Shown here: one piece after another, positions 1,682-55,973 of the stretch
Layout: the number at the start of each line of letters is the position of its first letter
Numbering within the stretch: the stretch's first letter is position 1
Assembly: GCA_029258795.1 (NCBI GenBank)
Contig: JAPDKB010000002.1
Span: 50,822 to 114,821 of the forward strand
Length of the DNA: 64,000 bases
Reading direction: 5' to 3'
DNA from: an archaeon
GTDB lineage: Archaea > EX4484-52 > WAPT01
The notes under the pieces: generated by a model
The model's input: only the letters and a program-made list of their open reading frames with translations
Told to the model about the DNA's origin: nothing
Database searches by the model: none
Position numbers and translations under genes: made by a program

Positions 1682-1803
1682 GGGCCGGTGGTCTAGCGGC
1701 TATCTGCGAAAACCGGAGGGCTCAGCTCTCTCCGGTCTTCCAGACCGAAGATGACGTCGCCCTCACGCGGCGAAGGTCGGCGGTTCGAATCCGCCCCGGC
1801 CCA
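1682..1803 (+). tRNA. tRNA-Val (anticodon CAC, tentative) with ~49-nt intron in the D-loop region
   Basis: Acceptor GGGCCGG pairs with CCGGCCC+A; intact T-arm GGCGG-TTCGAAT-CCGCC; anticodon arm TCGCC-CTCACGC-GGCGA; ~49 extra nt between the D-loop and the 3' D-stem strand form internal hairpins. Confidence 0.7.
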
Positions 1804-2262
1804 TAGAAATTATCCGAATCGCATGTTTACCTAATCGCCAACATAATGCGTTACGAATATCACAAGGAGTGCTATCATCACGTGTTCTGCTATCATGTTG
1901 ACCGGGGTTCATTTTTCATTCTGGCCATTCTGTAACTCAGAAATGAAAGGAGAGACAACTCCCAGAAAACGCTGACCAAAACAGCCTTCTCCAATTCCAG
2001 AAGCAACATGGGCACCAGAAAGCTGAGAGCGAAGATGCTTATTAGGGAGAAGGCTTGCTCTACCGTGGTTCATCACTCCATTAGCTTGTTTGATGAACAG
2101 GTGGAACAAGCCTCCCTATAAATGTTTTGTTATCGGGACAGTATCAAAATTCCGGACATGTCAACTTAAGAACCAATTTCTCCACTCTGGCATAAAAATC
2201 AAAATAAGGGGGCTCAGCATATCTTGATTTTGCAAAACACACCTTAAAGGAGGTGATATACC

Positions 2263-2893
2263 ATGCTGAGCCCCCATATAGATGAAATGTTCTCAAGGAT
2301 ATTTAAAAGAAACAAAAAGCTGAAAGAAAAACAAGATAAAGCCAGTATTGCTTTATTTCTCGGGATTATCATACAGAAAAGCAGGAGATGAAACAGATAT
2401 GAGCCATGAGAACGTGAGAAAGTTATTCAGAAAAACGAAAGAATTTCTCAGGGAAATAAAGCCAGTAAAAAGAAAAACGATAGCAATGGATGAGACGGTG
2501 ATAAAAACAAACGGGAGGAGATGTTACATTTACGCAGCTTACGCATGAGGGCTTATGCAGCAAGAAGTTATTTGGCAGCTCTGGATTTTGTAAAACGGGT
2601 TTTTGGAGTTGGGTAAGAAAATAATCTCCTGTTTGCTGTTGATAAGGCTCCGCGGCATTAGACGGGTTTTTGAAAGACCCGGGTTGAGATATGTGCATGA
2701 GACTTCTGGAATGAGGAATAAAGTGTGGAGGGGGATCTTTTGGTTATTTGAAGCAGGGAAGTGTTTTGTTTTATTCACGACAATTAATGTGAATTTGGGG
2801 TCTGTGTTTGGAAGAATGGATAAAAGGGTTGAGGGATGGAGAAGCTTTGAGGCATCTGAATTTGTTTTTGAAGTTGTTTATGGTTTATTATGA
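2263..2893 (+). pseudogene. Degraded IS6-like transposase (multiple frameshifts)
   Basis: Three consecutive frames together read like one IS6-type transposase: MLSPHIDEMF...ALFLGIIIQKSRR*, then LYFSGLSYRK...MDETVIKTNGRRCYIYAAYA*, then RSYLAALDFVKRV and LRYVHETSGMRNKV; no single intact ORF. Confidence 0.5.
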
Positions 2894-3282
2894 TTGGTTT
2901 GTCAGGAGGTGAGGCTTATCCGGATGCACTCCTTGCACATACCACAAACATTTATATATAACTTTTGCCAAAATATAAAGCCATGATTAAAGATGCAATA
3001 ATGTTGGTTTCTATAATGTGGGGTGGAAGGTCGAAACAATAAGAAAAGAAAGTGGAAAGAATCTTCTTTTGAAATTGACTTTATTTTATGTTGCGCTGGG
3101 TATTGCTATATTTTTTTACTATGTTCGGGACTTTTATGTATATAATCAGGCATTGGATTTTTTGTTCGGTAAAATAGGTGGAACATTCCATACAATTTCA
3201 TTCCTTTCCATTTTCCTCTTCTCCGTAGATATATTTTATTCAGAGAAGTGGAAGAGATAGATATGCTTACTTTCTGGGAATT

Positions 3283-3636
3283 TTGCTGATGACTGTTTTC
3301 GTGATTTTCCTGTGGAACGTAACGTTTGCCAGTGAAATTCAGGTGGTTAAGCTTGATAAGGAGTACGTCGTAACTCACGTTTATTTTCCAGATAAATCCG
3401 AAATGATGCTTTACGTTGTTTTAGTGAGTGTAATATCATTTTTACCTATTCTCTCATTTTTAGCTTACGGAATAAAGGTTCCGGCGAAAAGAAGAAAGGC
3501 TCTAACCTATTGTTTGGGAATAGCCGTTACCGCCTCAGGAACCATGCTTTGCCTCCTTATATCCCCAATACTTGCACGAGTTATGTATCTGCTGGGTGCA
3601 GTCATCTGCTATTATGCTTTCAAAATGAAGAGTTGA
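3283..3636 (+). CDS. Small hydrophobic membrane protein (hypothetical)
   Basis: 117-aa ORF with 3 predicted TM segments, in an AT-rich region; no recognisable family. Confidence 0.3.
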   Translation: MLMTVFVIFLWNVTFASEIQVVKLDKEYVVTHVYFPDKSEMMLYVVLVSVISFLPILSFLAYGIKVPAKRRKALTYCLGIAVTASGTMLCLLISPILARVMYLLGAVICYYAFKMKS

Positions 3637-3640
3637 GGTA

Positions 3641-4114
3641 ATGAACATGACTGTGCTGCGAAAAAAAGAAAGAAGCATATGTATATCCCAGAGAGAATGG
3701 GCGGTGATGACTAAAAGGTTGTATGAAGTTGCAGGAAAGGTTTTTGGTAGAGCGCTCTATGAAGGTGGACAGGTAAAAGGAAAGGAATTGGTAAAAAAAT
3801 ATGGCGTAAAGAAAGACGATTTGAAACAATTGCAAGAAGTAATAAAAAAAGAGGGCCTTGCAAGAAATGTGGAGATACATGATAGAGAAATATTGGTTGA
3901 AGGTTCTTTTGAAGGAGAAGCTCTAAAACCATACACAAGGCCTGTGTGTTTTTATCTCGCAGGGATCATTGCAACCATTTATTCAAAGATAGAAAAGGAA
4001 GATGTAAAAGTTGAAGAAACGGACTGCATCTCCACAGGTAAAAAAGTGTGCAGGTTTGTCGTCAGGCCGCTTGAGTGGTATGAAAAGATGAATGAAGTTA
4101 TGGAAATAATTTGA
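3641..4114 (+). CDS. V4R domain protein
   Basis: 157 aa; C-terminal motif CFYLAGIIATIYS...ETDCISTGKKVCRFVV matches the V4R (4-vinyl reductase) Cys pattern. Confidence 0.55.
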   Translation: MNMTVLRKKERSICISQREWAVMTKRLYEVAGKVFGRALYEGGQVKGKELVKKYGVKKDDLKQLQEVIKKEGLARNVEIHDREILVEGSFEGEALKPYTRPVCFYLAGIIATIYSKIEKEDVKVEETDCISTGKKVCRFVVRPLEWYEKMNEVMEII

Positions 4115-4345
4115 AAAAAGTAAGCATGTTTTGGCTTCGTTTCCTTATATAAAGGGACAAGCAATTGCGACTTACTTATTCATATTATATCGTTTGGATA
4201 GAGGATGCTTGGAACTTTTGAAGTGAGAGGCTTTGGGACACCTATGTAAGCCACCTCCAAACATTTTTATTGGTTATAAGCTATATATCTCTATCGAACA
4301 AACACCTATTCGCGGTCTAAGCCGCAGTATAGCATCTTCGTTCAT

Positions 4346-4419
4346 GGGGATAGGGAAAGCTTAATCAAAATGTCGCAGTCTTAAGCTGCATGTCCCAAGT
4401 CAAGCTTTTCCCTATCCCC
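4346..4419. repeat. 17-bp inverted repeat (GGGGATAGGGAAAGCTT / AAGCTTTTCCCTATCCCC) with ~40-bp spacer
   Basis: Direct reading of 4346-4362 against 4402-4419; additional short palindromes nearby (GCGGTCTAAGCCGC); non-coding stretch. Confidence 0.5.
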
Positions 4420-5613: not shown

Positions 5614-6954
5614 TTAGTTTTTGCGGGAGAATAAGTCCTTATAATGACCCCAGTCCAGAATCTCCTTTAAGAAATCATTTATTTTAGACTCCAACATTAT
5701 GAGCCTTCCATCAGGGTCATAAACCCTTTCCAGAATATTTATGCGCTCGTCCAAAGTATTCCCATTTAAGCCTTGATAAAGAGGAGAGGAAAGAACTTCA
5801 TACAGTTTTTTAAGAATTTGTTCTTCACAAGCAAGAGCTTTACATTCCCGGATTTCCGATTTATATTTTTTAATTTCTTCAACCCTATTCTTCATTATTG
5901 AAATGCTTTCGCTTATTTTCTTCAGTTTTTCTTCACAATCCTCTACTCCCTTTATACTGTATTTCTTAAGCCAGATTTTTAATATCTGTGGCGGGAAAGT
6001 TTTCGGATTCTCTAGTATAATCCCCGAAAGATTTTCATCTCTTACTACCGAATTAATTTCATTGAAGATATCATCTCTGTTTATAACGTAATCCCATTTT
6101 ATTTCTATACCTTCCCGTGTTTTTTTTCCAAATTTATTCAACATATTAACAAAACTTCTCGGCAGATTGTTTGAATGTTTCTCCCACATATACTCTATTT
6201 TTCTGTCAGCTTTCACTCTATAGACTGAAAATAGACACGAAGAAAGTGGAGGTTCTACGCAGATTGGAAGACCTGAGATGTCTTCCAGACCTGAGATCTC
6301 TTCCAGATTTTCAGATTCTATATAACGATTATACTCATAGATTGGGTTTTTTGTTGATATTATAATTCTCTTGCCTTCATCCCGTTGCTCAAGGGCTATT
6401 AATGCAAGTTCATTCATGACAGCTTTTCCTATGTCTCTTGTAGCTTCTCTTGCGACAAGATCTCCTACGTAGTCCCAGTTATCGATGCATACAACCTCTG
6501 CCTCATTTATAAGCTTTTTTGGGTCAGTTAGATCGGCTTTTAGGGTCCATTCCCATTTTTCTCTATTTTCCTCTGAAAGATATATTCTAGGGTCAAATGC
6601 CTTTATATCTCCTGTGAAGATATCGAAATATACTCCTGCAGGAAATATATCTTCTTCCGCTAAAATATTAAACGCAGCTAGAATTCTGGTGGTTTTTCCT
6701 ATACCTCTTGTTCCACGAAGTTCTATATTATCTGACTTGATCCTATCTGCTAATATTTTCGAGTCCAAATAATATACTTTACATTTTAGTATGTCATTCA
6801 ATAGATTATAGTCCATTTCTTCCGCTCTGAGCGGAATATTCGGAGAGTAATCTTCTGATGTCACTTGATTTGGACTTTTAATATCAGTTTCCTTCATAGA
6901 TAGAAATTTTTGACATAAAATTTTAAATAATTTTGGCTCCACGCCATAAAACAT
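5614..6954 (-). CDS. Orphan P-loop NTPase (archaeal ATPase-like), function unknown
   Basis: 446 aa; Walker A LRGTRGIGKTTRIL, Walker B-like VVCIDNWD; coiled-coil-rich C-terminus; AT-rich gene beside IS elements. Confidence 0.55.
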   Translation of the reverse strand: MFYGVEPKLFKILCQKFLSMKETDIKSPNQVTSEDYSPNIPLRAEEMDYNLLNDILKCKVYYLDSKILADRIKSDNIELRGTRGIGKTTRILAAFNILAEEDIFPAGVYFDIFTGDIKAFDPRIYLSEENREKWEWTLKADLTDPKKLINEAEVVCIDNWDYVGDLVAREATRDIGKAVMNELALIALEQRDEGKRIIISTKNPIYEYNRYIESENLEEISGLEDISGLPICVEPPLSSCLFSVYRVKADRKIEYMWEKHSNNLPRSFVNMLNKFGKKTREGIEIKWDYVINRDDIFNEINSVVRDENLSGIILENPKTFPPQILKIWLKKYSIKGVEDCEEKLKKISESISIMKNRVEEIKKYKSEIRECKALACEEQILKKLYEVLSSPLYQGLNGNTLDERINILERVYDPDGRLIMLESKINDFLKEILDWGHYKDLFSRKN

Positions 6955-6978: not shown

Positions 6979-7819
6979 GATTCATAACAAAAACAAGAGC
7001 TTTCTCTATTCCATCATCCAATTAATTTCCCATAAATTCAAAAACGAAGAAAATTTTTTCATGTTCTTAAAACCGCGAAACTTTCTGTATCTGTTCCTGA
7101 GCCATGAGATCAAACCTTCTGCCCTGTTATTGCTAAGAAAATAAATCATACCTTTATGAAAAACAATCTTTTTTTCAAAATGAGCTATAACACGCTTAAT
7201 CTTTCTAATTCTTAACCCCTTTCTCAGGGTTTTACTATCATATCCATACCATCCATCCGTTACTATTATCTCAGGTTTGTATCCCGCATTCTCTATAGCT
7301 TTTCTAAGCAATCTAACAACTTCTTTGCTTTCCCTTCTATCACTAACATGCATTGCCATAATTCTTGATCTTTCATCGCAGCAAACATAAAGATAGTTCA
7401 TTCTTCCCTTAGCTTTAACATACATCTCATCCAAATGCCATACCTCTGCAATTTTTTCAAATTCCTTATTCTTTGCCTTAAGCTCTTTGAGAAACTTTTT
7501 ATCCTTTCCAAATTTATGTATCCAGTTAAGAACAGTTCTTGCAGGAACTCTTATTCCTTTAAATTTTTCCATAATCTTCTCAACATCATAGGTTGAAACA
7601 ACAAATCTTGAGTAAAGCCACAGGCAAAGCATAACAATCTCTTTATCATATCTTATCCTCGCAAATTCGTCCATACCTTTTTCTGAGAAAACGTAGAAAC
7701 ATTTTTTGCATCTGTATCTCTGGTATTTCTTATCTTTATGTTTGTAAAAACCCAGCTTCCATATATCTCTTGATGAGCATCTGGGACATGAAATCTTCAT
7801 GAATTTTTTATTATGAATG
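6979..7819. mobile_element. IS6-like insertion sequence (~840 bp) with imperfect terminal inverted repeats
   Basis: Left end ATTCATAACAAAAA (~6980-6993) versus reverse complement of right end ATTCATAATAAAAA (~7805-7818), 13/14 match, bracketing the transposase ORF 7006..7800. Confidence 0.5.
7006..7800 (-). CDS. DDE transposase, IS6-family-like, with N-terminal zinc finger
   Basis: 264 aa; CPRCSS...YRCKKC zinc ribbon; DDE region WHLDEMYVKAKGRMNYLYVCCDERSR...IIVTDGWYGYD resembles the IS6 DETYVK..G..YL..A.D motif (IS1-like is an alternative). Confidence 0.7.
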   Translation of the reverse strand: MKISCPRCSSRDIWKLGFYKHKDKKYQRYRCKKCFYVFSEKGMDEFARIRYDKEIVMLCLWLYSRFVVSTYDVEKIMEKFKGIRVPARTVLNWIHKFGKDKKFLKELKAKNKEFEKIAEVWHLDEMYVKAKGRMNYLYVCCDERSRIMAMHVSDRRESKEVVRLLRKAIENAGYKPEIIVTDGWYGYDSKTLRKGLRIRKIKRVIAHFEKKIVFHKGMIYFLSNNRAEGLISWLRNRYRKFRGFKNMKKFSSFLNLWEINWMME

Positions 7820-7826
7820 AGGTTAT

Positions 7827-8726
7827 TTATATGTTTTTTGGCGTAGAACCCATTAATTTCTCTATTACTGCCAGAGTTTTCCCTATTAAATTTGTTTTTA
7901 AATTAAGCAAAAATTCGAAAAAGCTTACCCATAAGCTAAGATATTTCTTGCTTATCCCCCTAAACACCCTATACCATGATTTTAAAAAAGAAAATCTATT
8001 CTCTGCATTGTTAATATGAACATTGCCTTCCGCAAACCTTTTCTTGTTATGCGGGATTATTCCATGTTTATAACCTTTTCTCTCTATTTCCTTTGTATAA
8101 ATAGGAAAGTCATCAGTATTTACTATAGAGCCTTTCTCAACATAAGTTTCGAGTAGCTCTAAAACAAGCTCTTCACTTAAGCCTTCCAGAGCTACGAAGA
8201 ATATGCTCTTACCTTTTCTTTCAGTTAAAACTATGACTGGAGTTTTGCCTTCTTTTAGCCCACCTCTACCTTTAATTCCAGTTCCACCCCTCTTCATAGG
8301 CTTTCTAGAAAGCCTTCTATTACCCTTTTCACCAGCTGTTAGATAGGTTTCATCCATCTCAACATTAACTTTTAGCTTGGAAGCTATTTGCCTTGCAAGC
8401 AAATCTTGCTTGATTTTCTTAGCTGCTTTCCAAACATGCTCATATTTTCTACCAAGATCGATTGCTATTGAATAAATGCTTCTTCCAGCCGAATGCTCTT
8501 TTATTATATAAGACCATTCCCAAATCGGTAGCTTTGATTTATCGAATATCGTTTTGGTTCTATTGTTGAAAGTTCTTTTGCATTTTTTGCAAAGATAGCG
8601 TTGAAAGCCTTTCTTATCCTCACCCCTCTTAACAACCTCCTTTGACCCGCAGAAAACGCACCTTACTCCTTCTTTCCATCTAAGCTTTTGGATTATTTCT
8701 ATGCACTTCTCATCACCTGGGGGCAA
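7827..8726 (-). CDS. IS1595-family-like transposase
   Basis: 299 aa; N-terminal zinc ribbon CVFCGS...QRYLCKKCKRTF; DDE motifs VEMDETYLTAGEKG and VNTDDFPIY; C-terminal NAENRFSFLKSWYRVFRGISKKYLSLWVSFFEF typical of IS1595/ISH4. Confidence 0.7.
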   Translation of the reverse strand: MPPGDEKCIEIIQKLRWKEGVRCVFCGSKEVVKRGEDKKGFQRYLCKKCKRTFNNRTKTIFDKSKLPIWEWSYIIKEHSAGRSIYSIAIDLGRKYEHVWKAAKKIKQDLLARQIASKLKVNVEMDETYLTAGEKGNRRLSRKPMKRGGTGIKGRGGLKEGKTPVIVLTERKGKSIFFVALEGLSEELVLELLETYVEKGSIVNTDDFPIYTKEIERKGYKHGIIPHNKKRFAEGNVHINNAENRFSFLKSWYRVFRGISKKYLSLWVSFFEFLLNLKTNLIGKTLAVIEKLMGSTPKNI

Positions 8727-13011: not shown

Positions 13012-13181
13012 GCGGGGGTTGCCGAGCCTGGCCAAAGGCGCTGCCTTGAGGGGGCAGCCGCCGCGGTGTATGAGAGGTGGCGCCGCAGTGGCCCATTCCC
13101 TTAGTGGGTTCGAGGGTTCAAAAGCTTGGTCAAGCCGTCCTCCCTCGGCAGCTTAAATGGCTGGAAGTCCCTCCCCCCGCA
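13012..13181 (+). tRNA. tRNA-Leu (anticodon GAG, tentative) with two non-canonical introns (variable region and T-loop)
   Basis: GCGGGGG acceptor pairs with CCCCCGC+A+CCA; D-arm GCCGAGCCTGGCCAAAGGCG; anticodon arm CTGCC-TTGAGGG-GGCAG; T-stem GAGGG...CCCTC split by ~45 nt; ~40 extra nt before the variable arm (TCCCTTAGTGGGTTC). Confidence 0.6.
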
Positions 13182-13213
13182 CCACCATCATGCTTCATGT
13201 TCCTTACGTTCAT

Positions 13214-13351
13214 GCGGGGGTTGCCGAGCCTGGCCAAAGGCGCGGGGCTTAGGACTCCGTGGCTCAGTGCCTGCGTGGGTTCGAAGGCCGCTGTTCGGTG
13301 GCTGGGTTTTCAAGTCCGATCTTAACGCGGCCGGAACTCCCACCCCCCGCA
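13214..13351 (+). tRNA. tRNA-Leu (anticodon TAG) with T-loop intron
   Basis: Same 30-nt 5' end as the upstream Leu gene; anticodon arm CGGGG-CTTAGGA-CTCCG; long variable arm; T-stem GTGGG...CCCAC interrupted by ~50 nt after TTCGAA; CCA encoded. Confidence 0.65.
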
Positions 13352-13423
13352 CCAGCCCGAACCAGATTTCTGCCAAGAATTCACCATTAATTATATAAAC
13401 GATGAAATCCCCAACCTTTACTC

Positions 13424-15463
13424 ATGAAGAAAGTACCGATCATGAGCGCTCTTTTAATCTCCGTATTTGTTTTTATCCTATTTCTCCCAGCATCCCATGC
13501 GGTTCAGATAATCATAATCAACGAAACTGAGGAATTCGCGCCAGCAAACCTCGAAAAAATGGTTATCAGTGGCGATCTATTTGAGGGCATGCTGTATTTT
13601 AGCGCAGAAGGTTATGCGGCTGAAACCGGAGGGAAGGCAAAGGTTTACATAGCAGGAAAGCCCTCCGACATTCTTGTTGAAAGCGTGACAATCAACGGAA
13701 ATGAAGGAAAGGTGTTTTTTGACGAGCGGGGGTATTTTGTGGTTGTTGATACGCCCTCCTTCCATCTTGAAGGCAGGATAAAAGTGAGGAGCGGCGATAA
13801 CATTCTGTTTTTCCCCGGACCAATAAACAAGCTGGAGTTCCGGCTTAAACATGGCTATGCGATAAACGGTCCGGAGTTTTACGGTGTGGTGAACAAGACA
13901 ATCACCCTCAAGAAAACTTTCGTGGAAAGGTACATCTCTGTTACTGGCTCTGGCAAGATAACTGTCGAAAGCACAAATACTGTAAGGTTCAAGTACGTGT
14001 TCGAGGTTGCGGGATATGGAGGGGTTATAGGCACGCTATCAATACCTCTGAACAACGGCGAGCTTGTTAACATCATTGACGTGGATAACTGCGCTGGTTC
14101 CAGCTGGAACAAGAACGAGGAAGGCATAACCTTCCAGCTGCCGTGCGAGAAGGCAATAATCACGCTGGAAGGTGTGTTCTCCTGCGGGGAATGCAATTCT
14201 ATCCGCTTCACAAACCCGATAGACAGCTATATGAAAGTGATTGTGGAGGCAGTGCCGGAAAAGAAGCTCACAATCAGGACATATGCAACGGAGCTGGATG
14301 TGAGTGAAGCACCATTTCCCATGCAATATCCTAACGGCAGGGTCTTTCTGCTCAGCGGGCATCAAGCCATGACTATTGAGGTTGAGGAGCTTGAGAAACT
14401 TCCTGCTCTTGCCGCAACTATTGATAGGGCAAAATGTACGCAAGCCATAAATAAGGATGGTGCTGCACTGACGAGTTGCGAGTACCGCTACAAGAACAGC
14501 GGTATGGATTTCATAAAGTTTGAGCTGGAAGGCACGCCATTATATGCTGAAGCTAACGATAAGTCGCTCAGGCTTACGGTTGAAGATGATGACCTTTATC
14601 TCGCTTTTCCGAAGAGCAGGTATGGAGGAGATATGGAAATCATGTATTTCACGAGCATGTCAAGAATTCTACCTATTGATTTGATCAGCTTGCCCATCCC
14701 ATCCACAGAAGTTCCAACAACCGAAATGGCTGTCGATGTTTACCTGCCCAAGGACGTTTACGTTCTGGCAGCTTTTGGAGGGGACAGATTTACAAGCGAG
14801 CTTCCTGCTCTTGAGTTTGTTGTGGCGTTCACCATAGCAGTGCTTCTTGTTGGACTCGCGCTGTGGAACGATAAGAGGAAGCTTCTCATGTTTTATGTCG
14901 TTTCCGCAGCCATATACTTCATCTCCCAGCAGCTCTTCCTGATATGGCTTGCAATCTGCCTGCTTCCGTTTGTTAAGCGCAACCTGCCGACGGAGGAAAT
15001 AAAGAAGACGTGGAGGGTTATAAAGTTTCTTCTTGCTACGGGAATTGTCATAGCTGCTCTGTTTTTCGTTATTTCATGGCTGTTTTCCGGAACGGGTAGC
15101 TATATGGCAGCTAAGCAAGAAGCGGCAGTGTATAAAGCTACAGGTGAGCGATTCATTGGAAATATGCCGGTGGTGGAGGAGAAGAGTGTGCAGCTTGGCG
15201 AGGAGGGTAAGGGAACAATAACCATACAGCTGAAGGAGGGAATAAAGCCGGTGAAGATGGAGATACCGCAGCTGGGTAAGGTTGTCTCGCTGCACCGCGC
15301 TCTTGTGACAGCGGAAAGACCGGCAAGCTTTAAGCTGGTTGTGATTGACAGGCTTGTGATCTACATGTTGCTGCTGGTAGCTCTCTATTTCTTCCTCAAA
15401 CTGCTTCCCGATCTCAAGAAAGCGTACATCGATGCATTTCCCTCTCTCAGAAAAATAAGGTGA
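13424..15463 (+). CDS. Large secreted/membrane-anchored protein (hypothetical)
   Basis: 679 aa; N-terminal signal peptide MKKVPIMSALLISVFVFILFLPASHA; several C-terminal TM helices; no recognisable catalytic motifs. Confidence 0.5.
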   Translation: MKKVPIMSALLISVFVFILFLPASHAVQIIIINETEEFAPANLEKMVISGDLFEGMLYFSAEGYAAETGGKAKVYIAGKPSDILVESVTINGNEGKVFFDERGYFVVVDTPSFHLEGRIKVRSGDNILFFPGPINKLEFRLKHGYAINGPEFYGVVNKTITLKKTFVERYISVTGSGKITVESTNTVRFKYVFEVAGYGGVIGTLSIPLNNGELVNIIDVDNCAGSSWNKNEEGITFQLPCEKAIITLEGVFSCGECNSIRFTNPIDSYMKVIVEAVPEKKLTIRTYATELDVSEAPFPMQYPNGRVFLLSGHQAMTIEVEELEKLPALAATIDRAKCTQAINKDGAALTSCEYRYKNSGMDFIKFELEGTPLYAEANDKSLRLTVEDDDLYLAFPKSRYGGDMEIMYFTSMSRILPIDLISLPIPSTEVPTTEMAVDVYLPKDVYVLAAFGGDRFTSELPALEFVVAFTIAVLLVGLALWNDKRKLLMFYVVSAAIYFISQQLFLIWLAICLLPFVKRNLPTEEIKKTWRVIKFLLATGIVIAALFFVISWLFSGTGSYMAAKQEAAVYKATGERFIGNMPVVEEKSVQLGEEGKGTITIQLKEGIKPVKMEIPQLGKVVSLHRALVTAERPASFKLVVIDRLVIYMLLLVALYFFLKLLPDLKKAYIDAFPSLRKIR

Positions 15464-17261: not shown

Positions 17262-17362
17262 AGAACATCACTCCATAAACAACTGACAAACTTTCTTCAT
17301 CCTCCGCAACATTTATATATTTAACTGCGCCGACTTCGTGAAGCAGTATGCCCTATACTCAA

Positions 17363-17710
17363 TCACTTTTTCTTGGAAGAGGTGCTTTTCTTCTTGGTTG
17401 TGCTTTTTGCTTTGGTTGCTGTTTTCTTTGTTTTCTTCTCCCCAACCTCGGCTTCAACCTCCTCCAGCTCGGCTTCTTCTTCCTCCAGCAGCTTGTTCAT
17501 CTTGTAATCATCCCACGCTATCCACGCTACAAGCATGCCCATGAAGAACAGGAATGCTCCGAAGACGCCCTCAAACACTATCTTGAGGCTTTTCCAGAGT
17601 GCCGCTCCAAAGTACGGGATGTTACCGATATACCAATAGATGCCAGCAGCCATCAGCAGGATACCTATGACCATCTTAACTCCATTGTTCATCCGACCAC
17701 CTCTAAGCAT
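17363..17710 (-). CDS. Small membrane protein with acidic linker and lysine-rich tail (hypothetical)
   Basis: 115 aa; two hydrophobic helices, then EEEEAELEEVEAEV, then KKTKKTATKAKSTTKKKSTSSKKK; lies in the gap between L15e and the helicase. Confidence 0.4.
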   Translation of the reverse strand: MLRGGRMNNGVKMVIGILLMAAGIYWYIGNIPYFGAALWKSLKIVFEGVFGAFLFFMGMLVAWIAWDDYKMNKLLEEEEAELEEVEAEVGEKKTKKTATKAKSTTKKKSTSSKKK

Positions 17711-17839
17711 TTTTCCAGCTTTTCTGAAATTAGCGAGGGAAATTTTAAAAATCTACCAACCGCGCTCAAAAGGTCAGAGAAACGGGGAGAGTGTAAGCTG
17801 GGTTTTCCTTTCGGCATCCATGTTCTGCTAACCTTAAAA

Positions 17840-19750
17840 ATGTTCCCTCTGCAGTTTTTCAACATGCGCTTCTTCCCGTTCTCAACGATCAGGCCCGGAC
17901 AAAAGGATATGGTGGAAGCTGTAAGGGATGCGTGCGAGCAGGGGAAAGTTCTGCTGGTGCACGCTCCAACCGGAATAGGAAAGACCGCAGCTTCGCTTGC
18001 TCCTTCCTTGGAATATGCGGTGGAGCATGACAAGAGAGTTGTGTTTTTAACTCCGAGGCACACGCAGCACAAGATAGCTATTGATACAGTCAGAAGGATA
18101 AATGCTCGTGCCAACGTGAATCTGAAAGTTGTGGATGTGATCGGTAAGAAGTGGCTTTGCAGGATGGAGGGAATAGAAAAGCTGAGCTCCGCTGAGTTCA
18201 ACGAGTACTGCAGAGCTCTGAAGAGAAACGAGGCCTGCCCTTTTTACAACAACACGTGGAACAGGAGAAGTGGAGGGCTTACCAAGAAAGCTGAGGCCAT
18301 GATAAAAAGCGTGAGGAGAGATGTACTCTATGCGGAAGAGGTCTATGAACTTTGCGATGACCTGTGCCCCTATGAGATCCTCATGCAGGCAGCCAGAAAT
18401 GCCAACCTGCTGATAGGAGACTATTATCATATCTTCCATGAAAGAATAAGGAAGAGCTTCCTCGGCAGGAGCAACACGAAGCTGGAGGATGTTGTTCTTG
18501 TGGTGGATGAAGCGCACAACTTGCCAGCAAGGATAAGGGAACTCATGTCATCATCAACAAGCCTGCTTGCAATGAAAAGAGCTGAGAGAGAAGCGGAGGT
18601 TTTTGGCTACGACGATCTGGCCGAGATCATAGCCACAATCAGAACGCATGTGAAAAAGAAGCTGAAGGAAAAGCTGGAGAAATCCGGAACACCTCAGCTT
18701 TACGTTGGAAGAAGTTTGCTGCTCGATGCAGCTGAAAATAGTGGTGCTGATCTGGAAGAGCTGCTGGACTACATGGAGGAGGTGGCTGACGAGGTCAGGG
18801 AGGAGAAAAAGCGCTCATATGTTGGCGGGTTTGCATCATTTTTGAGGAGGTGGAAGGATGAAGCTCCAATCTACTGCAGAATAGCGGAGAAGAAGCTGAC
18901 CAGAAAGGGCAGAACCAACTATGTTCTCACGCTTCACTGCCTTGACCCCGCTCCCATTGCCTCGGAGGTGTTTAAGGAAGCGCATGCCACAATTCTCATG
19001 TCCGGCACCTTGCTCCCGCTTGAAATGTATGCAGATGTGCTCGGCGCAACGGAACTTGATGCAGTCAGATTGAAACTGAGGTCGCACTTTCCGCGCAGCA
19101 ACAAGCTTGAGATCGTGGTGGATGATGTTACAACCCAGTACAACAGAAGGGAGGAAAGGAACTTCGAGAAAATAGCGAAATACATCATTTCAGTAGTTAA
19201 TGCCACTCCTGACAACGTTTGCGTTTTCTTCCCGAGCTATGAGCTCCGCGACACCATCGCAAGAATGGTTGAGCTCTCGCTTGAAAAGAAGGTGCTTCTG
19301 GAGAAGCAGGGGATGAGCAAGAGCAGGAAAGCGCAGCTATTCCATGAGTTTGTAAGCGCAGCTGAGCAGGGAGGAGCATGCCTGCTTGGTGTGATGGGTG
19401 GCAGCTTCGATCAGGGTGTTGACTTTCCGAACAACGTGGTGAAGTGTGTTATCGTGGTGGGGCTGCCACTCGAAAAACCGGATTTGCTGACCGAAGCGAT
19501 GATAAACTACTATGATGCTAAATTTGGCAAGGGATGGGATTATGCCTACACCTATCCCGCAGTCATAAAAGCGCAGCAAGCAGCTGGAAGAGCCATAAGG
19601 AGTGAGAAGGATAAAGCGGTTGTGGTTTATATGGACAAGCGTTATCTCTGGGCAAACTACAGAAAGTGCTTCCCTGCTGAAACAAGATTCATAGTGTCAA
19701 GAAATCCAGCAGAGCTCATAAAAAGGTTCTTCTCGGATAGCAAGAAGTGA
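17840..19750 (+). CDS. XPD/Rad3-like (DinG family) Fe-S helicase
   Basis: Walker A VHAPTGIGKTAAS, DEAH box VVDEAHNL, four-Cys cluster (CRMEG...EYC...CPFY...CDDLCP); start placed at first ATG after the upstream minus-strand gene (17840 or 17864). Confidence 0.8.
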   Translation: MFPLQFFNMRFFPFSTIRPGQKDMVEAVRDACEQGKVLLVHAPTGIGKTAASLAPSLEYAVEHDKRVVFLTPRHTQHKIAIDTVRRINARANVNLKVVDVIGKKWLCRMEGIEKLSSAEFNEYCRALKRNEACPFYNNTWNRRSGGLTKKAEAMIKSVRRDVLYAEEVYELCDDLCPYEILMQAARNANLLIGDYYHIFHERIRKSFLGRSNTKLEDVVLVVDEAHNLPARIRELMSSSTSLLAMKRAEREAEVFGYDDLAEIIATIRTHVKKKLKEKLEKSGTPQLYVGRSLLLDAAENSGADLEELLDYMEEVADEVREEKKRSYVGGFASFLRRWKDEAPIYCRIAEKKLTRKGRTNYVLTLHCLDPAPIASEVFKEAHATILMSGTLLPLEMYADVLGATELDAVRLKLRSHFPRSNKLEIVVDDVTTQYNRREERNFEKIAKYIISVVNATPDNVCVFFPSYELRDTIARMVELSLEKKVLLEKQGMSKSRKAQLFHEFVSAAEQGGACLLGVMGGSFDQGVDFPNNVVKCVIVVGLPLEKPDLLTEAMINYYDAKFGKGWDYAYTYPAVIKAQQAAGRAIRSEKDKAVVVYMDKRYLWANYRKCFPAETRFIVSRNPAELIKRFFSDSKK

Positions 19751-20896: not shown

Positions 20897-21316
20897 ATGA
20901 AAATCTGTGTTCCAGCAACAGGAGAGGGTCTTGAGGTAAGGATATGTCCTGTATTTGGCAGAGCACCTTACTTTGTTTTTGTGGAGGTGGATGATGGAGG
21001 AAACATAACCTCATGGAACGCGGAAAAGAACCCAGCCGAGTATGCGAGGGGTGGTGCGGGCATAATGGCATCCCAGAAGGTGGTGGATGCTGGCTGTGAT
21101 GCACTCATAACCATTTCAATCGGGCCTAAAGCCTATGATGTGCTGAGAGCATCGGGAGTGAAGGTTTATGCCGGGGTGGAGGCATCGGTAAAGGATAATG
21201 TTGAAAAGCTGGTTAGAAACGAGCTGAGCGAGATGGTTGAAGCTGTGCCTGGAAGGTTCGGAAGAGGATGGAGAGGAGTAAGGGGCTTTGGAGCAGGGAG
21301 AGGGTGGAGATGGTGA
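20897..21316 (+). CDS. NifX/NafY-like (dinitrogenase FeMo-cofactor-binding fold) protein with RG-rich tail
   Basis: 139 aa; MKICVPATGEGLEVRICPVFGRAPYFVFVEVDD...GCDALITISIGPKAYDVL resembles the Nitro_FeMo-Co domain; C-terminal GRGWRGVRGFGAGRGWRW. Confidence 0.65.
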   Translation: MKICVPATGEGLEVRICPVFGRAPYFVFVEVDDGGNITSWNAEKNPAEYARGGAGIMASQKVVDAGCDALITISIGPKAYDVLRASGVKVYAGVEASVKDNVEKLVRNELSEMVEAVPGRFGRGWRGVRGFGAGRGWRW

Positions 21317-35215: not shown

Positions 35216-35365
35216 GGGCCGGTGGTCTAGCCTGGAAGGACGTCGCCTTGGCATCACACAGCTTTCACGGCTGTGTGCCAGTATGGCGGAGGCCCCGGGT
35301 TCAAAATGGCTGCTTACGCCGTTTTAAGAATCGGGCAAGCTTTCATGAAAATCCCGGCCGGTCCA
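35216..35365 (+). tRNA. tRNA-Ala (anticodon GGC) with a canonical anticodon-loop intron and a second intron in the T-loop
   Basis: Acceptor GGGCCGG/CCGGTCC gives the G3:U70 alanine identity pair; D-arm GTCT-AGCCTGGAA-GGAC; anticodon stem TCGCC...GGCGG with ~30-nt insert after TTGGCA containing a 9-bp hairpin; T-stem CCGGG...CCCGG split by ~45 nt; CCA encoded. Confidence 0.75.
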
Positions 35366-35403
35366 CCACATATAAATTTTTTTCTCTCCATCTTTAACTC
35401 TCA

Positions 35404-37182
35404 ATGACAAGAAAACTACCAACGATGTATGAGATAAAATCAATAAGGAATGAGACGCCTTCTATAAAGACGTTTTCATTTCACGCTCCCGAGATAGCGA
35501 AGCTAGCAAAACCCGGGCAGTTTCTCATGGTCTGGTTGCCCGATATTGATGAAATTCCAATAAGCGTTGCCTTTGCCGATGAGAAAAGCGGCACGGTGGA
35601 GCTGGCAATTGCAAAAGTGGGGGACTGTACATCCAAAATCCATGAGTTGAAAGAGGGTGATGTTCTGGGTTTGCGCGGTCCCTATGGTAACGGCTTCGAT
35701 ATTAATTATGGGATGGAGGAAGCTTGGCTCGTTGCAGGAGGGTGTGGCGCTGCCCCACTACGCTTTCTCGCAAGCAGGCTGAAGGAAAAGGGAGCGAGTG
35801 TTACAACTTTCATAGGCGCGAGAAATAGGAGTGAGCTTCTCTACCTTGCCAAGTTTAAGGAGATAGGTGAAGTTATGGTTGCCACAGATGATGGAAGCAC
35901 CGGCTACAAGGGTTTTGTGACCGAACTGCTGGAAAACGAGCTCAAAAACTGCAAGCCAGACATGATTTTCACTTGCGGACCCGAGCCCATGATGCGAAAG
36001 GTCTGTGAGGTGGCAGAAAAGGAAGGGGTAAGGGTGCAGGCATCGATAGAAAGGATGGTGAAGTGTGCAAGAGGCGCATGCGGAGCATGCGACATTTTTG
36101 GCTTTAGGGTCTGTAAGGAAGGTCCAGTGTTCGATGGAATGTTCCTGCTCAGGACAGAATTCGGCAGGTGGAAGCGCGACAAGAGCGGGAAGAGGATAGG
36201 GATTGCGGGCAACACAGACCTTTCCTCACCACCCATTCCCGAGTTCAGACCAACCATAAATCCCAAGCTGAGTATGAAGCTCCTCAACATCCAATTCCCG
36301 AATCCATTCATGAATGCTGCTGGTTTTGGTGTGTCCGGCATGCTTCTTTACCGCTACGTCAAAAACGGAGCTGGAGCAGTCGTTACAAAATCCGTGGGGA
36401 AGGAGGAGAGAGGAGGATTTCCCAACCCTACCTTTGGCGAGCTTGAAGATGGCACTTATTTCAACGCTATGGGTCTTCCCAACCCCGGCATAGATAATTA
36501 CCAGCTTGACATTCAGGATGCGAAGAAAGCTAACGTGCCCGTTGTGGTCAGCATATTTGGACAGAGTGAGGAGGAATGTGCTTACGTGGCGTCAAAAGCC
36601 ATTGAATATGGTGCAGATATGATCGAGATTAATGTTTCATGTCCTCATACGGAAATTTCAAGCGTGGAGAACGACCCCGAACTTGTGAAAAGCATAACAA
36701 GAGCTGTGGTTGAGATTGCAGGGAAAAACGGTGTGCCTGTAACCGTAAAACTATCTCCCAACGGTGATTACGTGAGCGTTGCCAAAGCCGCTGAGGAAGG
36801 AGGGGCAAGCGCCATAACCGCCATAAACACTGCACGAATAAGACCCACAATCGAGTTTGATGGCAAGGAGCTCAAAATCCTTGGAAATCCTACCGGCTAT
36901 GGCGGGATGTCGGGCAGGAAGCATAAGGAAACCGGAAAGAAGGTTGTGTACGAGCTTTATGAGGAGATAAGCATACCCATAATCGGCGTGGGAGGTATAT
37001 TCAACGGCAGGGACGCTTTTGAATACGCGGCATGTGGAGCTTCACTCTTCCAGATAGGTAGCGCTATGGTCCACAGAGGCTTAAGCGTGTTTTCAGCCAT
37101 CCAGAAGGAGCTTGAGGAAGAGCTTGAAAAGAATGGGTTTGAGAAGCTGGAGGATGTTGTGGGAGCTTATCACAAAAGGTGA
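35404..37182 (+). CDS. pyrD: Fused dihydroorotate dehydrogenase: electron-transfer subunit (PyrK-like) plus catalytic subunit (PyrD class 1B)
   Basis: N-terminal PyrK-like FAD/NAD and Fe-S region (GQFLMVWLPDIDEIPISVA...CARGACGACDIFG), C-terminal PyrD region (FPNPFMNAAGFGVSG...NPGIDNY...IGVGGI). Confidence 0.8.
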   Translation: MTRKLPTMYEIKSIRNETPSIKTFSFHAPEIAKLAKPGQFLMVWLPDIDEIPISVAFADEKSGTVELAIAKVGDCTSKIHELKEGDVLGLRGPYGNGFDINYGMEEAWLVAGGCGAAPLRFLASRLKEKGASVTTFIGARNRSELLYLAKFKEIGEVMVATDDGSTGYKGFVTELLENELKNCKPDMIFTCGPEPMMRKVCEVAEKEGVRVQASIERMVKCARGACGACDIFGFRVCKEGPVFDGMFLLRTEFGRWKRDKSGKRIGIAGNTDLSSPPIPEFRPTINPKLSMKLLNIQFPNPFMNAAGFGVSGMLLYRYVKNGAGAVVTKSVGKEERGGFPNPTFGELEDGTYFNAMGLPNPGIDNYQLDIQDAKKANVPVVVSIFGQSEEECAYVASKAIEYGADMIEINVSCPHTEISSVENDPELVKSITRAVVEIAGKNGVPVTVKLSPNGDYVSVAKAAEEGGASAITAINTARIRPTIEFDGKELKILGNPTGYGGMSGRKHKETGKKVVYELYEEISIPIIGVGGIFNGRDAFEYAACGASLFQIGSAMVHRGLSVFSAIQKELEEELEKNGFEKLEDVVGAYHKR

Positions 37183-38593: not shown

Positions 38594-38890
38594 ATGGCGA
38601 AGAAGGGAAAGAAGAGGTACTTTGTTTTGCTGGATGACAAGGGCAATGAAATCGGTGTCTTTACCGGAAGGCAGCCAAGACAGGCAGCTCTTAAGGCTGC
38701 TACAAGGGGTTACACCAAAATCAGATTGAGAGAGAGGGGAACAAACAAGATCCACATCTATCAGGGTAGTAGGAAGAAGGTGCCTGCTCCAGCCAACGCA
38801 CCAGAATGGATGGGTAAGGAAGTGTGGAAGCCAGTGGTTAAGAAGGTAGGAATCGAGAAGATCGAGAAGAAAAGGAAAAAGAAGAAGTAA
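38594..38890 (+). CDS. Chromosomal protein MC1
   Basis: 98 aa; RYFVLLDDKGNEIGVFTGRQPRQAALKAATRGYTKIRLRERGTNKIHIY closely matches MC1 as recalled from Methanosarcina. Confidence 0.75.
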   Translation: MAKKGKKRYFVLLDDKGNEIGVFTGRQPRQAALKAATRGYTKIRLRERGTNKIHIYQGSRKKVPAPANAPEWMGKEVWKPVVKKVGIEKIEKKRKKKK

Positions 38891-40255: not shown

Positions 40256-40537
40256 GCGGCAGGGCTAGGCCGGGGAGCTAGCCCCTCCCTGTAACCGCAA
40301 ACGGGCTAACGGCGGGGCCGAAAACCGGGGGGCGGGCGATTGGCGGCTCGCTGGGCAGCTTGCTGCTGAACAATGACTCTCTGCCCCCGAAGGCCGCTGT
40401 ACCGGTGAACCGGGTCAGGCCCGGAAGGGAGCAGCCCTAAGCCGGTACTTCGGTGCTTCGGGATCAGCGGAGAGGAGGTAGGCAGCATCTCTGCCCGCGA
40501 GCTTAGCCGCGCTCCACCCCCGGGAAGCCCTGCCGCG
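40256..40537 (+). ncRNA. Signal recognition particle RNA (7S/SRP RNA)
   Basis: Helix-8 core GGUGAACCGGGUCAGGCCCGGAAGGGAGCAGCCCUAAGCC; 5' GCGGCAGGGCUAGGCCGGGG pairs with 3' CCCCGGGAAGCCCUGCCGC; GC-rich ~280 nt; TATA-like AAAATATTTAA about 30 nt upstream. Confidence 0.75.
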
Positions 40538-51984: not shown

Positions 51985-52105
51985 CCCGCCGTAGCTTAGT
52001 CTGGTAGAGCGCTCGGCTGTAGGTCTGTGCCGCGTGGTATGGCGCAGCCACGCAGCCAGTTGCTCAGAAACCGAGAGGTCCCCGGTTCGAATCCGGGCGG
52101 CGGGA
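51985..52105 (+). tRNA. tRNA-Tyr (anticodon GTA) with canonical anticodon-loop intron (~47 nt)
   Basis: Acceptor CCCGCCG/CGGCGGG+A+CCA; D-arm GCTT-AGTCTGGTA-GAGC; anticodon stem CTCGG...CCGAG with CTGTAG then intron; intact T-arm CCCGG-TTCGAAT-CCGGG. Confidence 0.75.
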
Positions 52106-52432
52106 CCAAATTGAAAATGCTAGATTTTTCATAACAAACATGTATTCAAAATCCAATCGGTAATTTTTTATAAGTAAAAATGAACGGATATGAAAGGGGA
52201 TTTGAACACTTCTGACTGTTCAAGAAATATTCTGAAAAAGATTAGAAATATTTCCACCTTATCTATGAGACCACAAAACTTATTAAGCACTTTTTGACGA
52301 ATTATGAGAAAAGCTAGTTATTTAGAAGTGAATAACTCATTTTGTAAAGGACTCCCCACAAAAGAAATTAGAAACACAGAGGGAAAATTAAACATTTTTT
52401 ACAAATGGTCTATTAAGTAATGAATGAGGAAA

Positions 52433-53863: not shown

Positions 53864-54090
53864 AATAGTTTGTTTTTCGTTCGTTTAAATTAATTATAAT
53901 TATCACGGAAATTATCGACCTGTTCTCTGAAATTCAATTTATGGGATAAATGATATTAATTGAATCTAGATTTTTGGAGATGACAAAATAAAATAAATTC
54001 GTAACGATTAAATCCAAGAGGAGAGGATAAGAGTGCTGGCATTATGATATAATTACCAGAAGTAGGTTTAGAAGCGCCTTCTCATTTTCA

Positions 54091-55515
54091 TCATTCAATC
54101 ATTATCTCAGAACTTCTGGTTCTTATCTTTCTTCTTCCAACCTGTGCTCGCACTTCTACTGGTGGAAGCTTTATTTTGCCCTCCACGTGCAAAAGCGGCT
54201 TTATTTTGTAAGCGAGCACCTTCTCCTCTCCCGGTTTCAAACTTGCGAATCTCCACACTATTCTTGTCTTTCCATGCAATTTTTTGATTTCCACGGGCTT
54301 TCCAGCCTCAAATTCTCTTATCACCTGGAACATTCCGGGCACGTCATCCACGACTTCAACGTTCTTAAGCGTGCGTTTGCCACGGTTTCTTATGGTTACA
54401 TAAACTTTGTGTATGTCCTCATGTCTCCTGTGTTTTTTATGCACACGCGGATATTGCACGACCTCAAAAACAATGAAAAAGATGATAAGTGCAGCCAGAA
54501 TCATGAACAAGAACGGCCAGTAGTTTATTCCGTATCGTATCGTGCATGATTCAAGCGGTTTTAGTTTGCATTCCCACACGAAATAAGTGCTTCCATCCTC
54601 CTCCACAATCTCTGGCTTGGTGATTATTATGTACGCAAAGTCAGGATATCTTTTTGGTTCTTGAATAGTGAATGTTCCTTCCTCATTACCTTTGTTGGTT
54701 ACAGTTATGATTATTTCTTTCTCCATGAACTTTTTCTCCACTGCTTTGGATTTATCCATCACAGCTTTGCTCTCGATGGTAAAGGATGTTCTTTTTTCAT
54801 CCAGCGTGTCACCTATATCATCAACGAGTTTTGCCACCACACTATATTCTCCCTTTGCTTTATACGGATCGAGGGTGAAGTTGAAAGTCAGTAACTTTGT
54901 CTCGTTGACCTTTAGATCAGGCACACGTTTTTTCGCAACTTCTTTGCCAGTTATACCTTCAACCTCAACAACCACGTAGATGTTGTAGCCTTCTGTGCTC
55001 TCAGAACCCTCGTTTTTGACACCCACCATAACCGTTATCGGCTCGCCCATCGAATAAAGTTGCTTGGATGTTTCGAGCTTTTTCATCACGAGCTTTATAG
55101 ATTTTTCCACGTAGACAGTGTCTTTAATTTCTATTTTCTGAGCATGATTATTTTTGTTCCTGACTATAATTATGAACTGGTAAAGACCGGACGGTGTTCC
55201 TTCGGGAGGAGAGATGGTGATGGAGACCTTTTTAGTTTCATGGGGCGCAAGTCGCAGGTATGATGGCTCGACATTATACCACGCGATCTGAGAAGCGCTC
55301 AGAAGCACCTCCAGTTCTAAAGGTGTGTCTTCAAGGTTGGTTATAATCGCGGTGTATTTTACGCTTTCAGGTGGTTTGACAACCTTCACATCCGCTAAAA
55401 TTTTCACCTGAAACGGATTTGTTTGAGAAAAACCAACAGGCATCAGGTTAACTATGAAAATCCCCAGCACCGCGAATAGCAAAATATACCTCTTCACATC
55501 GCTCCCCTCAATCAT
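54091..55515 (-). CDS. Secreted/membrane-anchored protein with beta-sandwich-like repeats (hypothetical)
   Basis: N-terminal hydrophobic signal, TM helix near residue 340, repetitive V/K/E/T-rich segments; start set at internal Met so as not to overlap the upstream small gene. Confidence 0.45.
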   Translation of the reverse strand: MIEGSDVKRYILLFAVLGIFIVNLMPVGFSQTNPFQVKILADVKVVKPPESVKYTAIITNLEDTPLELEVLLSASQIAWYNVEPSYLRLAPHETKKVSITISPPEGTPSGLYQFIIIVRNKNNHAQKIEIKDTVYVEKSIKLVMKKLETSKQLYSMGEPITVMVGVKNEGSESTEGYNIYVVVEVEGITGKEVAKKRVPDLKVNETKLLTFNFTLDPYKAKGEYSVVAKLVDDIGDTLDEKRTSFTIESKAVMDKSKAVEKKFMEKEIIITVTNKGNEEGTFTIQEPKRYPDFAYIIITKPEIVEEDGSTYFVWECKLKPLESCTIRYGINYWPFLFMILAALIIFFIVFEVVQYPRVHKKHRRHEDIHKVYVTIRNRGKRTLKNVEVVDDVPGMFQVIREFEAGKPVEIKKLHGKTRIVWRFASLKPGEEKVLAYKIKPLLHVEGKIKLPPVEVRAQVGRRKIRTRSSEIMIE

Positions 55516-55703
55516 TCTGTGGGCGAGTAGTAGCATCTCTTGGGAACACATACCAATCCTTTCTTTTTAAGCTTGCTCATTATTCTGGACACCTCCTTGA
55601 CTTCCATCCCCGGCATTCTGGCCACTTCTCCCGGTCTAACGGGTTTGCCAGCTTTTTTCATGGCGTCCAGCAACAACTTTTCCTCCTCGCTTATGTTGCT
55701 CAT
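55512..55703 (-). CDS. Small winged-helix DNA-binding protein (hypothetical regulator)
   Basis: 63 aa; KAGKPVRPGEVARMPGMEVKEVSRIMSKLKKKGLV resembles a compact HTH; stop overlaps downstream gene start. Confidence 0.45.
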   Translation of the reverse strand: MSNISEEEKLLLDAMKKAGKPVRPGEVARMPGMEVKEVSRIMSKLKKKGLVCVPKRCYYSPTE

Positions 55704-55852
55704 TAACTCGCCCCCACTTTACATAGAAAATTGCCAGCAAAATGATAAATATGTTTTGTCATGTTTTGAAAGAAGATGAGATTCGAAATATCGGTTAGGA
55801 CCTAAGGCGGGAGTGATGGTCTAAAATTAGGAAAAATCCGTGATATGATTGG

Positions 55853-55973
55853 AGCCCCGGCCGGGATTTTCATGGAAGATTACTCGACCCTTAAAGCGGC
55901 GTCGAGCAGCCATTTTGAACCCGGGACCTCTTCCTTACCAGGGAAGCGCTCCACCAGGCTGAGCTACCGGGGC
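55853..55973 (-). tRNA. tRNA-Thr (anticodon GGT) with T-loop intron
   Basis: Reverse complement: acceptor GCCCCGG/CCGGGGC+T+CCA; D-arm GCTC-AGCCTGGTGGA-GAGC; anticodon arm CTTCC-CTGGTAA-GGAAG; T-stem CCGGG...CCCGG split by ~45 nt. Confidence 0.7.

Follow-up and report, generated by a model that had tools for sequence, protein, structure and literature searches.

Ten predicted bulge-helix-bulge introns interrupt all eight tRNA genes of a 64-kb archaeal window, mostly at non-canonical positions

Introns at non-canonical positions of tRNA genes have been described in several archaeal groups. In Candidatus Micrarchaeum acidiphilum ARMAN-2, 56% of the tRNA genes are disrupted and introns are found in the T-loop between positions 59 and 60, one of which is cleaved in vitro by the epsilon2 tRNA-splicing endonuclease (EndA) of this organism (Fujishima et al. 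2011, PMC3239211), and increased tRNA disruption is seen in DPANN lineages that carry an L3 loop in EndA (PMC5829648). In Thermoproteales, according to PMC8450103, there are on average 0.84 introns per tRNA gene (in P. calidifontis, 71 introns in 46 genes), and EndA is an (alpha-beta)2 enzyme with a CSL loop. Here we analysed a 64-kb stretch of archaeal DNA (the window, to which all positions refer), in which all eight tRNA genes are interrupted, and we propose, with a probability of about 0.9, that they are functional archaeal tRNA genes carrying ten predicted bulge-helix-bulge (BHB) introns of the archaeal endonuclease type.

The eight genes lie between position 1682, the first base of the first one, and position 55973, where the last one starts on the minus strand. 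Their ten introns measure 30-52 nucleotides (nt) and are located at positions 59/60 (six introns), 37/38 (two), 20a/21 (one) and 43/44 (one), eight of the ten being non-canonical, which amounts to a density of 1.25 introns per gene in the window. Both halves of every stem can be read directly at each locus, and the exon boundaries, set from the cloverleaf and from orthologues, are as follows.

1682-1803, plus strand: tRNA-Val(CAC), exons 1682-1701 and 1751-1803; intron 1702-1750 (49 nt) in the D-loop, between 20a and A21.
13012-13184, plus strand: tRNA-Leu(GAG), exons 13012-13057, 13097-13122 and 13168-13184; introns 13058-13096 (39 nt, 43/44, 5' of the variable arm) and 13123-13167 (45 nt, 59/60).
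13214-13354, plus strand: tRNA-Leu(UAG), exons 13214-13285 and 13338-13354; intron 13286-13337 (52 nt, 59/60).
30988-30866, minus strand: tRNA-Gly(CCC), exons 30988-30932 and 30882-30866; intron 30931-30883 (49 nt, 59/60).
35216-35368, plus strand: tRNA-Ala(GGC), exons 35216-35253, 35284-35305 and 35352-35368; introns 35254-35283 (30 nt, 37/38) and 35306-35351 (46 nt, 59/60).
41588-41455, minus strand: tRNA-Ser(CGA), exons 41588-41519 and 41471-41455; intron 41518-41472 (47 nt, 59/60), with a relaxed motif.
51985-52108, plus strand: tRNA-Tyr(GUA), exons 51985-52022 and 52070-52108; intron 52023-52069 (47 nt), canonical 37/38.
55973-55850, minus strand: tRNA-Thr(GGU), exons 55973-55914 and 55866-55850; intron 55913-55867 (47 nt, 59/60).

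An earlier note on this DNA had claimed that seven of these genes are interrupted non-canonically and that tRNA-Tyr alone has a purely canonical intron, and the coordinates and splicing of all eight genes agree with this. The T-loop inserts that it placed in Leu-GAG, Leu-UAG, Gly, Ala, Ser and Thr are indeed present, at 45-52 nt, but the splice point follows TTCRAN (59/60) and not TTCRA directly. The other three inserts that it had noticed, namely one of about 49 nt in the D-loop region of tRNA-Val, a second one before the variable arm of Leu-GAG and an additional canonical intron in Ala, correspond to the introns listed above at 20a/21, 43/44 and 37/38, the last of them with a strict BHB motif, and its observation that both stem halves are retained in each gene was borne out by the cloverleafs restored on excision.

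This arrangement resembles that of ARMAN-2 in the 59/60 position within the T-loop, in the coexistence of strict and relaxed (hBH or bulge-helix-loop, BHL) motifs, in the presence of multi-intron genes, in the high fraction of disrupted genes and in a DPANN affiliation, which for the window is provisional. It differs in that the window belongs to another lineage, with thermophile-like GC-rich RNAs in a genome of 44% GC and with best named RFC hits in Nanohaloarchaeota, in that the T-loop introns measure 45-52 nt, whereas the ARMAN-2 tRNA-Cys intron that was tested has 13 nt, and in that 59/60 is the dominant position (6 of the 10 introns). With Thermoproteales the window shares a comparable intron density, homologous introns in different tRNAs, which imply mobility, and relaxed BHBs (Sugahara et al. 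2008; Fujishima et al. 2010, as cited in PMC8450103), as well as multi-intron genes, with up to three introns per gene in relatives of the window. However, Thermoproteales belong to the TACK group and the window to a DPANN-labelled lineage. The introns of Thermoproteales perhaps occupy more positions than those of the window. In Methanopyrus kandleri, also a thermophile, pre-tRNA-Glu(UUC) carries a relaxed D-loop intron (HBh'), similar to that of tRNA-Val in the window, plus a canonical intron (Kaneta et al. 2018, PMC5829648), but there the D-loop intron is presented as a special case, poorly cleaved by the organism's own EndA, whereas non-canonical introns are the rule here. The split and permuted tRNA genes of Nanoarchaeum equitans, Caldivirga and Thermofilum (PMC3218864) follow the same BHB/EndA logic, but the exons of all eight window genes are colinear and contiguous within 122-173 nt. 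A split tRNA-Leu was also considered in two relatives (L120 and L121) and was rejected, given that the 3' exon was found 86-94 nt downstream, the interval being a long intron. The density of 1.25 introns per gene is high yet within the known range, and the gene structure, with BHB introns at non-canonical positions and signs of mobility, is already known from other archaea, the mechanism not being of a new kind.

When the unspliced window was searched, ARAGORN made one tRNA call, with wrong boundaries, and Rfam recovered only tRNA-Tyr completely (57 bits, the anticodon loop containing an insertion of 50 nt), together with tRNA-Thr in truncated form and two sub-threshold fragments; in these searches seven of the eight genes were missed or truncated. 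After in-silico splicing, ARAGORN recognised a normal tRNA with the expected anticodon in each of the eight cases (the spliced tRNA-Leu(GAG) has 89 nt), and excision at the predicted sites restored a cloverleaf with a 7-nt T-loop and a 7-nt anticodon loop. Such a poor yield from the raw sequence is what introns at non-canonical positions would lead one to expect, and it does not count against the genes. Because standard tRNA finders miss or truncate most of them, genomes of this lineage will appear to have few tRNA genes if the finder does not take BHBs into account.

Two further details of the tRNA genes deserve mention. The 3' CCA is encoded in seven of the eight, Leu-GAG ending in CCACCA and Val lacking CCA. 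Position 33, which is almost universally U in tRNAs, is C in tRNA-Gly(CCC) (loop CCCCCAA), the related Gly(UCC) of L121 having a normal CUUCCAA loop; this C33 may be genuine, though unusual, or may reflect a mistake in the run of six C.

The exon-intron junctions were scanned for the hBHBh' motif in its strict form, defined by a central helix of 4 base pairs (bp), two 3-nt bulges and flanking helices of at least 3 bp on each side, with the cut placed after the second bulge base. The strict motif was found in exact register at five of the ten junctions (the T-loop junctions of Leu-GAG, Leu-UAG, Ala and Thr, and the 37/38 junction of Ala). In the window as a whole there were 353 matches in about 4.6 million position-and-length combinations, or about 7.7e-5 each, giving an expectation of about 0.0008 strict motifs at ten fixed junctions, so that the five found represent an excess of about 6500-fold over the window background. 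Shuffling of the introns with the junctions held fixed gave p values of 0.0007-0.01 at eight junctions (H>=3/4, inner 3/3). Thus junction folding, a check that the earlier note had named beforehand, located the motif in register, strictly at half of the junctions and with p<=0.01 at eight of the ten.

Individually, the strict motifs gave p=0.003 at the 59/60 junction of Leu-UAG, p=0.003 and 0.0007 at the two junctions of Ala and p=0.0009 at that of Thr. The 43/44 junction of Leu-GAG has the central helix GGGC/GCCC (p=0.0024), and at the Val junction (p=0.0098) the BHB-like fold is the local minimum free energy (MFE) structure. The central helix of Gly, UUCG/AGGA, contains one G.A mismatch beside a perfect inner helix of 9-10 bp (p=0.009). 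Ser has an unbroken central helix, UUCG/UGAA, and a good AAU bulge on the 3' side, but its inner helix is non-adjacent (hBH/BHL-like), and in Tyr there is a U.U mismatch in the central helix. Folds constrained to form the BHB lie 0-5.8 kcal/mol above the local MFE, and the forced folds show the textbook pattern. A strict BHB at 41516-41481 on the minus strand is nested within the relaxed Ser intron, and its prior excision would leave an 11-nt bulge-helix-loop mini-intron at 59/60; two-step (nested) splicing of this intron is possible.

In the case of the T-loop introns, the T-stem itself serves as outer helix. The invariant bases U54-U55-C56-R57 pair with a tetramer close to the 3' intron end (UGGA, CGGA, AGGA or UGAA), one bulge being made up of bases 58-59 and the first base of the intron, and the other of the final two bases of the intron and base 60. 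Because the central helix is formed by U54-R57 with the 3' tetramer of the intron, the cut falls between 59 and 60, and because the T-arm and the anticodon arm share a 5-bp stem and a 7-nt loop, 59/60 is the exact positional analogue of 37/38. Since UUCR is identical in every tRNA, one intron sequence could serve the T-loop of any tRNA, and it is reasonable to suppose that docking on this universal tetranucleotide explains both the preference for 59/60 as a landing site and the presence of related introns in different tRNAs. Following the established archaeal scheme, each pre-tRNA would fold with two 3-nt bulges flanking a 4-bp helix at every exon-intron junction, EndA would cut after the second nucleotide of each bulge, an RtcB-type ligase would join the exons and the intron would be released, probably as a circle. 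The relaxed motifs of Ser, Tyr, Val and Gly would imply an endonuclease of broadened specificity.

Species-representative genomes were scanned with the pattern CCGGGTTCRA-N37-62-GRAAATCCCGG, which gave at least 116 matches, a sample of the taxonomic spread and not a census. Among the matches listed, removal of the T-loop insert yielded a valid tRNA in 64 of 73 archaeal cases and in one of 43 bacterial cases. The valid archaeal ones among them come mostly from DPANN and belong to metagenome-assembled genomes (MAGs) of Micrarchaeota, Aenigmatarchaeota, Nanoarchaeota, Woesearchaeota, Nanohalarchaeota and Thermoplasmata, and to one Helarchaeota; Thermoproteales and the window's own genome are not among the matches listed.

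Some observations weigh against the interpretation of the inserts as functional BHB introns in a DPANN-type host. The relaxed junctions of Ser (p=0.03) and Tyr (p=0.2) stand out least in the intron shuffles and are a poor fit to the strict BHB definition, and for most T-loop introns the unconstrained MFE structure lacks the weak 4-bp central helix. No gene for EndA (tRNA_int_endo), RtcB or another splicing protein was detected in the 64-kb window by Pfam scans that covered about 60 of the 64 open reading frames (ORFs) taken as genes. In 64 foreign T-loop introns an adjacent 3-bp inner helix occurs in 13, as compared with 7 of 52 controls, which is no enrichment; the strict motif is therefore not general, and those introns were not counted as support for BHBs. 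Finally, the DPANN placement is provisional, based on the submitter's label and on best named hits.

Comparison with orthologues allowed the predicted splice sites to be checked against natural intron-free alleles. The closest genomes were located via ThiI and RFC homologues. In the sister genome GCA_027038505.1, the tRNA-Val gene adjoining gyrA and the Leu-UAG gene (both on L118) are intronless and identical to the spliced predictions at 72/73 and 87/89 positions, and an intronless Ser(UGA) (L112) is 90% identical to the spliced Ser(CGA); likewise, the intronless Gly-UCC of L121 is 89% identical to the spliced tRNA-Gly(CCC). The Leu-GAG gene carries 1, 2, 2 or 3 introns in four genomes: that of L118 has the 43/44 intron only, with no T-loop intron, while those of L121 and L120 have a D-loop intron and a T-loop intron of 86-94 nt, with or without the 43/44 intron. 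The latter is absent from L121, where GGCAG is followed directly by TCCCTAAG, so that the boundaries of both window Leu-GAG introns are fixed by intron-free sites, in L121 for 43/44 and in L118 for the T-loop. In the Thr gene of L124, exon 1 is identical to that of the window (60/60) and the intron at the same T-loop site is unrelated, with 126 nt, and the Tyr gene of L124 has an extra T-loop intron in addition to that at 37/38.

The pairing itself is conserved where introns are shared. Val introns occupy the same D-loop site in L121 and L120, and the 4-bp central helix has changed in a compensatory manner (GCGG/CCGA, GUGG/CUGU and UUGG/CCGA). An alignment of 12 T-loop introns of the window and its relatives over their BHB cores has 92.3% of its cells paired, as against 72.5% in column shuffles (none of 500 reaching the observed value) and 31-59% in slid controls; the pair of R57 covaries among these introns (A-U in seven, G-C in three), and four out of four inner-helix pairs have changed on both sides, all three helices of the motif being supported by covariation. 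Exons are 98-100% identical to their orthologues and the inserts have diverged or been replaced. The exons are strongly constrained, and the introns vary freely provided that the BHB is kept.

This pattern bears on whether the interrupted genes could be decaying pseudogenes or insertion-hit relics, with functional intronless copies elsewhere in the genome. Such a view could draw on the fact that the analysis covered 64 kb of the genome, on the rejection of most of the genes by standard finders and on the odd C33 of tRNA-Gly(CCC). Yet the full set of eight genes would have to have decayed together, their exons are intact and nearly invariant while the inserts diverge or get replaced, every insert lies in BHB register, unlike the product of random insertion, and compensatory changes keep the BHB helices, which makes this explanation very unlikely. 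The assertion of the earlier note that these are real genes needing multi-site splicing, and not pseudogenes, thus gains support at the sequence level from the BHB register, the restored cloverleafs, the intronless orthologues and the compensatory changes, and the genes probably are functional.

Given that the source is a metagenome-assembled genome and that tRNA genes, being repeats, can be prone to misassembly, chimeric joins within tRNA genes produced by assembly or binning were also considered. We regard such an origin of the inserts as extremely improbable, since an independent Logan assembly of SRR22064148 (L001), which begins at window position 13217, carries the Leu-UAG locus, complete intron included, at 100% identity, introns occur at the same positions in four other assemblies of related organisms, and the inserts are short, have both halves of the same gene in correct order around them and form BHBs.

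Besides being polymorphic, several of the introns are related to each other. The T-loop introns of Ala and Thr, in genes 20 kb apart and on opposite strands, match in 37 of 47 aligned columns (z=17.5), the Gly T-loop intron is homologous to that of tRNA-Glu(CUC) in the sister genome (L112, z=9.4), and the Thr intron of L124 shares a 48-nt module with the Leu-GAG intron of L121 (z=12.9) and nothing with the Thr intron of the window. Homologous introns are therefore present in non-orthologous tRNAs, and orthologous sites are polymorphic for presence and absence (0-3 introns). Related introns in different tRNAs point to intron mobility, and together with the presence/absence differences they indicate repeated gain, loss and replacement; recombination and reverse splicing are both compatible with these data as the mechanism of movement. 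When metagenomes were scanned with a 17-mer spanning the junction of the Ala/Thr intron, none of the 94 matches had a downstream T-stem, and all of them were therefore taken as chance hits.

Real BHB introns could nevertheless be essentially static, their likeness arising from the copying of whole T-arm segments by gene conversion or duplication and not from transposition or homing. Ala and Thr do have an identical T-arm (CCGGGTTCAAATCCCGG plus CCGG) around their homologous introns, and therefore recombination between similar tRNA 3' halves could copy an intron. On the other hand, orthologues with nearly identical exons have no intron, have unrelated introns or have a family that is seen elsewhere in another isoacceptor, and the comparisons of window Thr with L124 Thr, of L124 Thr with L121 Leu-GAG and of window Gly with L112 Glu need repeated gain, loss or replacement, so that static introns seem possible but rather unlikely. 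At the other extreme, the clade may host actively mobile families of BHB introns that home to the T-loop 59/60 site of any tRNA, with U54-R57 as a universal docking helix, and that spread or swap faster than the genomes diverge. The EndA/ligase reaction in reverse is one candidate mechanism for such homing, the EndA of the clade might in addition be a variant of a not-yet-described type, and we consider the whole proposal speculative and doubtful at present.

The long T-loop introns of L121 (12319-12410, minus strand, Leu-GAG), L120 (2991-3080, minus strand, Leu-GAG) and L124 (5653-5790, minus strand, Thr) have in common a module of about 48 nt, AAGGGCGRGTTRAC-loop-GTYAACCCACCA, whose 10-bp hairpin stays paired in the two Leu-GAG introns via changes on both strands; this module was not found in the window. 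A conserved, covarying hairpin of this kind in the relatives is what might be expected if introns were kept for a function of their own, for instance as guide small RNAs (sRNAs) for tRNA modification or by shielding the T-arm from integration of mobile elements, the 3' part of tRNA genes including the T-arm being a classical attachment site for integrases. However, the interior of the introns shows little conservation from one orthologue to another, sister genomes are evidently viable with intronless alleles, and neither a C box nor a D box is present in any of the ten introns of the window; we find retention for such a function improbable. A role as C/D-box sRNAs was rejected on account of the missing boxes.

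As to the host, GC content of the genome is about 44%, and that of the structural RNAs reaches about 65%, a usual value for thermophiles. An archaeal signal recognition particle (SRP) RNA is encoded at 40258-40534 on the plus strand (Rfam, 139 bits), with a helix region shorter than that of the model, and this RNA and the eight tRNA loci are the only GC-rich intergenic islands of the window. The C-terminal part of GyrA is encoded at 46-1656 and MC1 at 38594-38890 (Pfam E=8e-35). The nearest assembly, GCA_027038505.1, carries the label 'Nanobdellati archaeon' (equivalent to DPANN) and encodes GyrA, GyrB and an MC1 that is 89% identical; genes for GyrA and GyrB are present in two other relatives as well, L120 and L121. 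Named homologues of MC1 are from Aenigmarchaeota, Nanoarchaeota and 'DPANN group' MAGs, and also from Methanotrichaceae, the best named RFC-S matches are from Nanohaloarchaeota (70%) and a 'DPANN group archaeon' (66%), and those of ThiI from Archaeoglobaceae and Thermoplasmata. The host lineage is thermophilic, its nearest genome bears a DPANN label, and close relatives differ in intron content at orthologous genes, with a rapid turnover of introns. The earlier note had called the intron density unexpected beside gyrase and MC1, which was overstated, given that the nearest DPANN-labelled assembly has gyrA, gyrB and MC1 and that tRNA disruption in DPANN has been published; tRNA introns beside these two proteins are not anomalous within this clade. 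In the close relative GCA_054030615.1 (L125 5655-7173, L126 443-1961), genes of the MtrA and MtrH families are located near the RFC locus, which looked unexpected for a DPANN label. No published description of the lineage, or of assembly GCA_027038505.1, was found in the literature searched.

Other features of the window include two adjacent transposase ORFs at 7006-8726 on the minus strand (one DDE IS240/rve-like, the other IS1595-like with a zinc ribbon), situated in a low-GC stretch (36-40% over 4-12 kb) that may be a mobile or foreign island. Two gene fusions are unusual: a PyrK-like FAD/NAD/Fe-S module joined to dihydroorotate dehydrogenase (35404-37182, plus strand) and a cation-efflux transporter joined to a dinitrogenase FeMo-cofactor-binding domain (21268-22569, plus strand). 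The large ORFs at 27973-30828 (minus strand, 951 aa), 13424-15463 (plus strand, 679 aa) and 5614-6954 (minus strand, 446 aa) have no Pfam match, and an exact match to the 679-aa protein was found in just one other assembly. The XPD/Rad3-like helicase encoded at 17348-19750 on the plus strand has 800 aa, as compared with 626-646 aa in relatives, and its Pfam domains start near residue 180, reflecting either an N-terminal extension or a mis-called start.

With these genes, a thermophilic, DPANN-labelled lineage with gyrase and MC1 joins the organisms in which introns outnumber the tRNA genes that carry them, with a strong bias to the T-loop in this case. Its close relatives, which have 0-3 introns per orthologous tRNA and have swapped introns at identical exons, are good material for studies on the gain, loss and movement of introns and on their co-evolution with the splicing endonuclease, and, if active homing families do exist, the clade would be a natural system in which to watch the gain of protein-spliced introns in progress.

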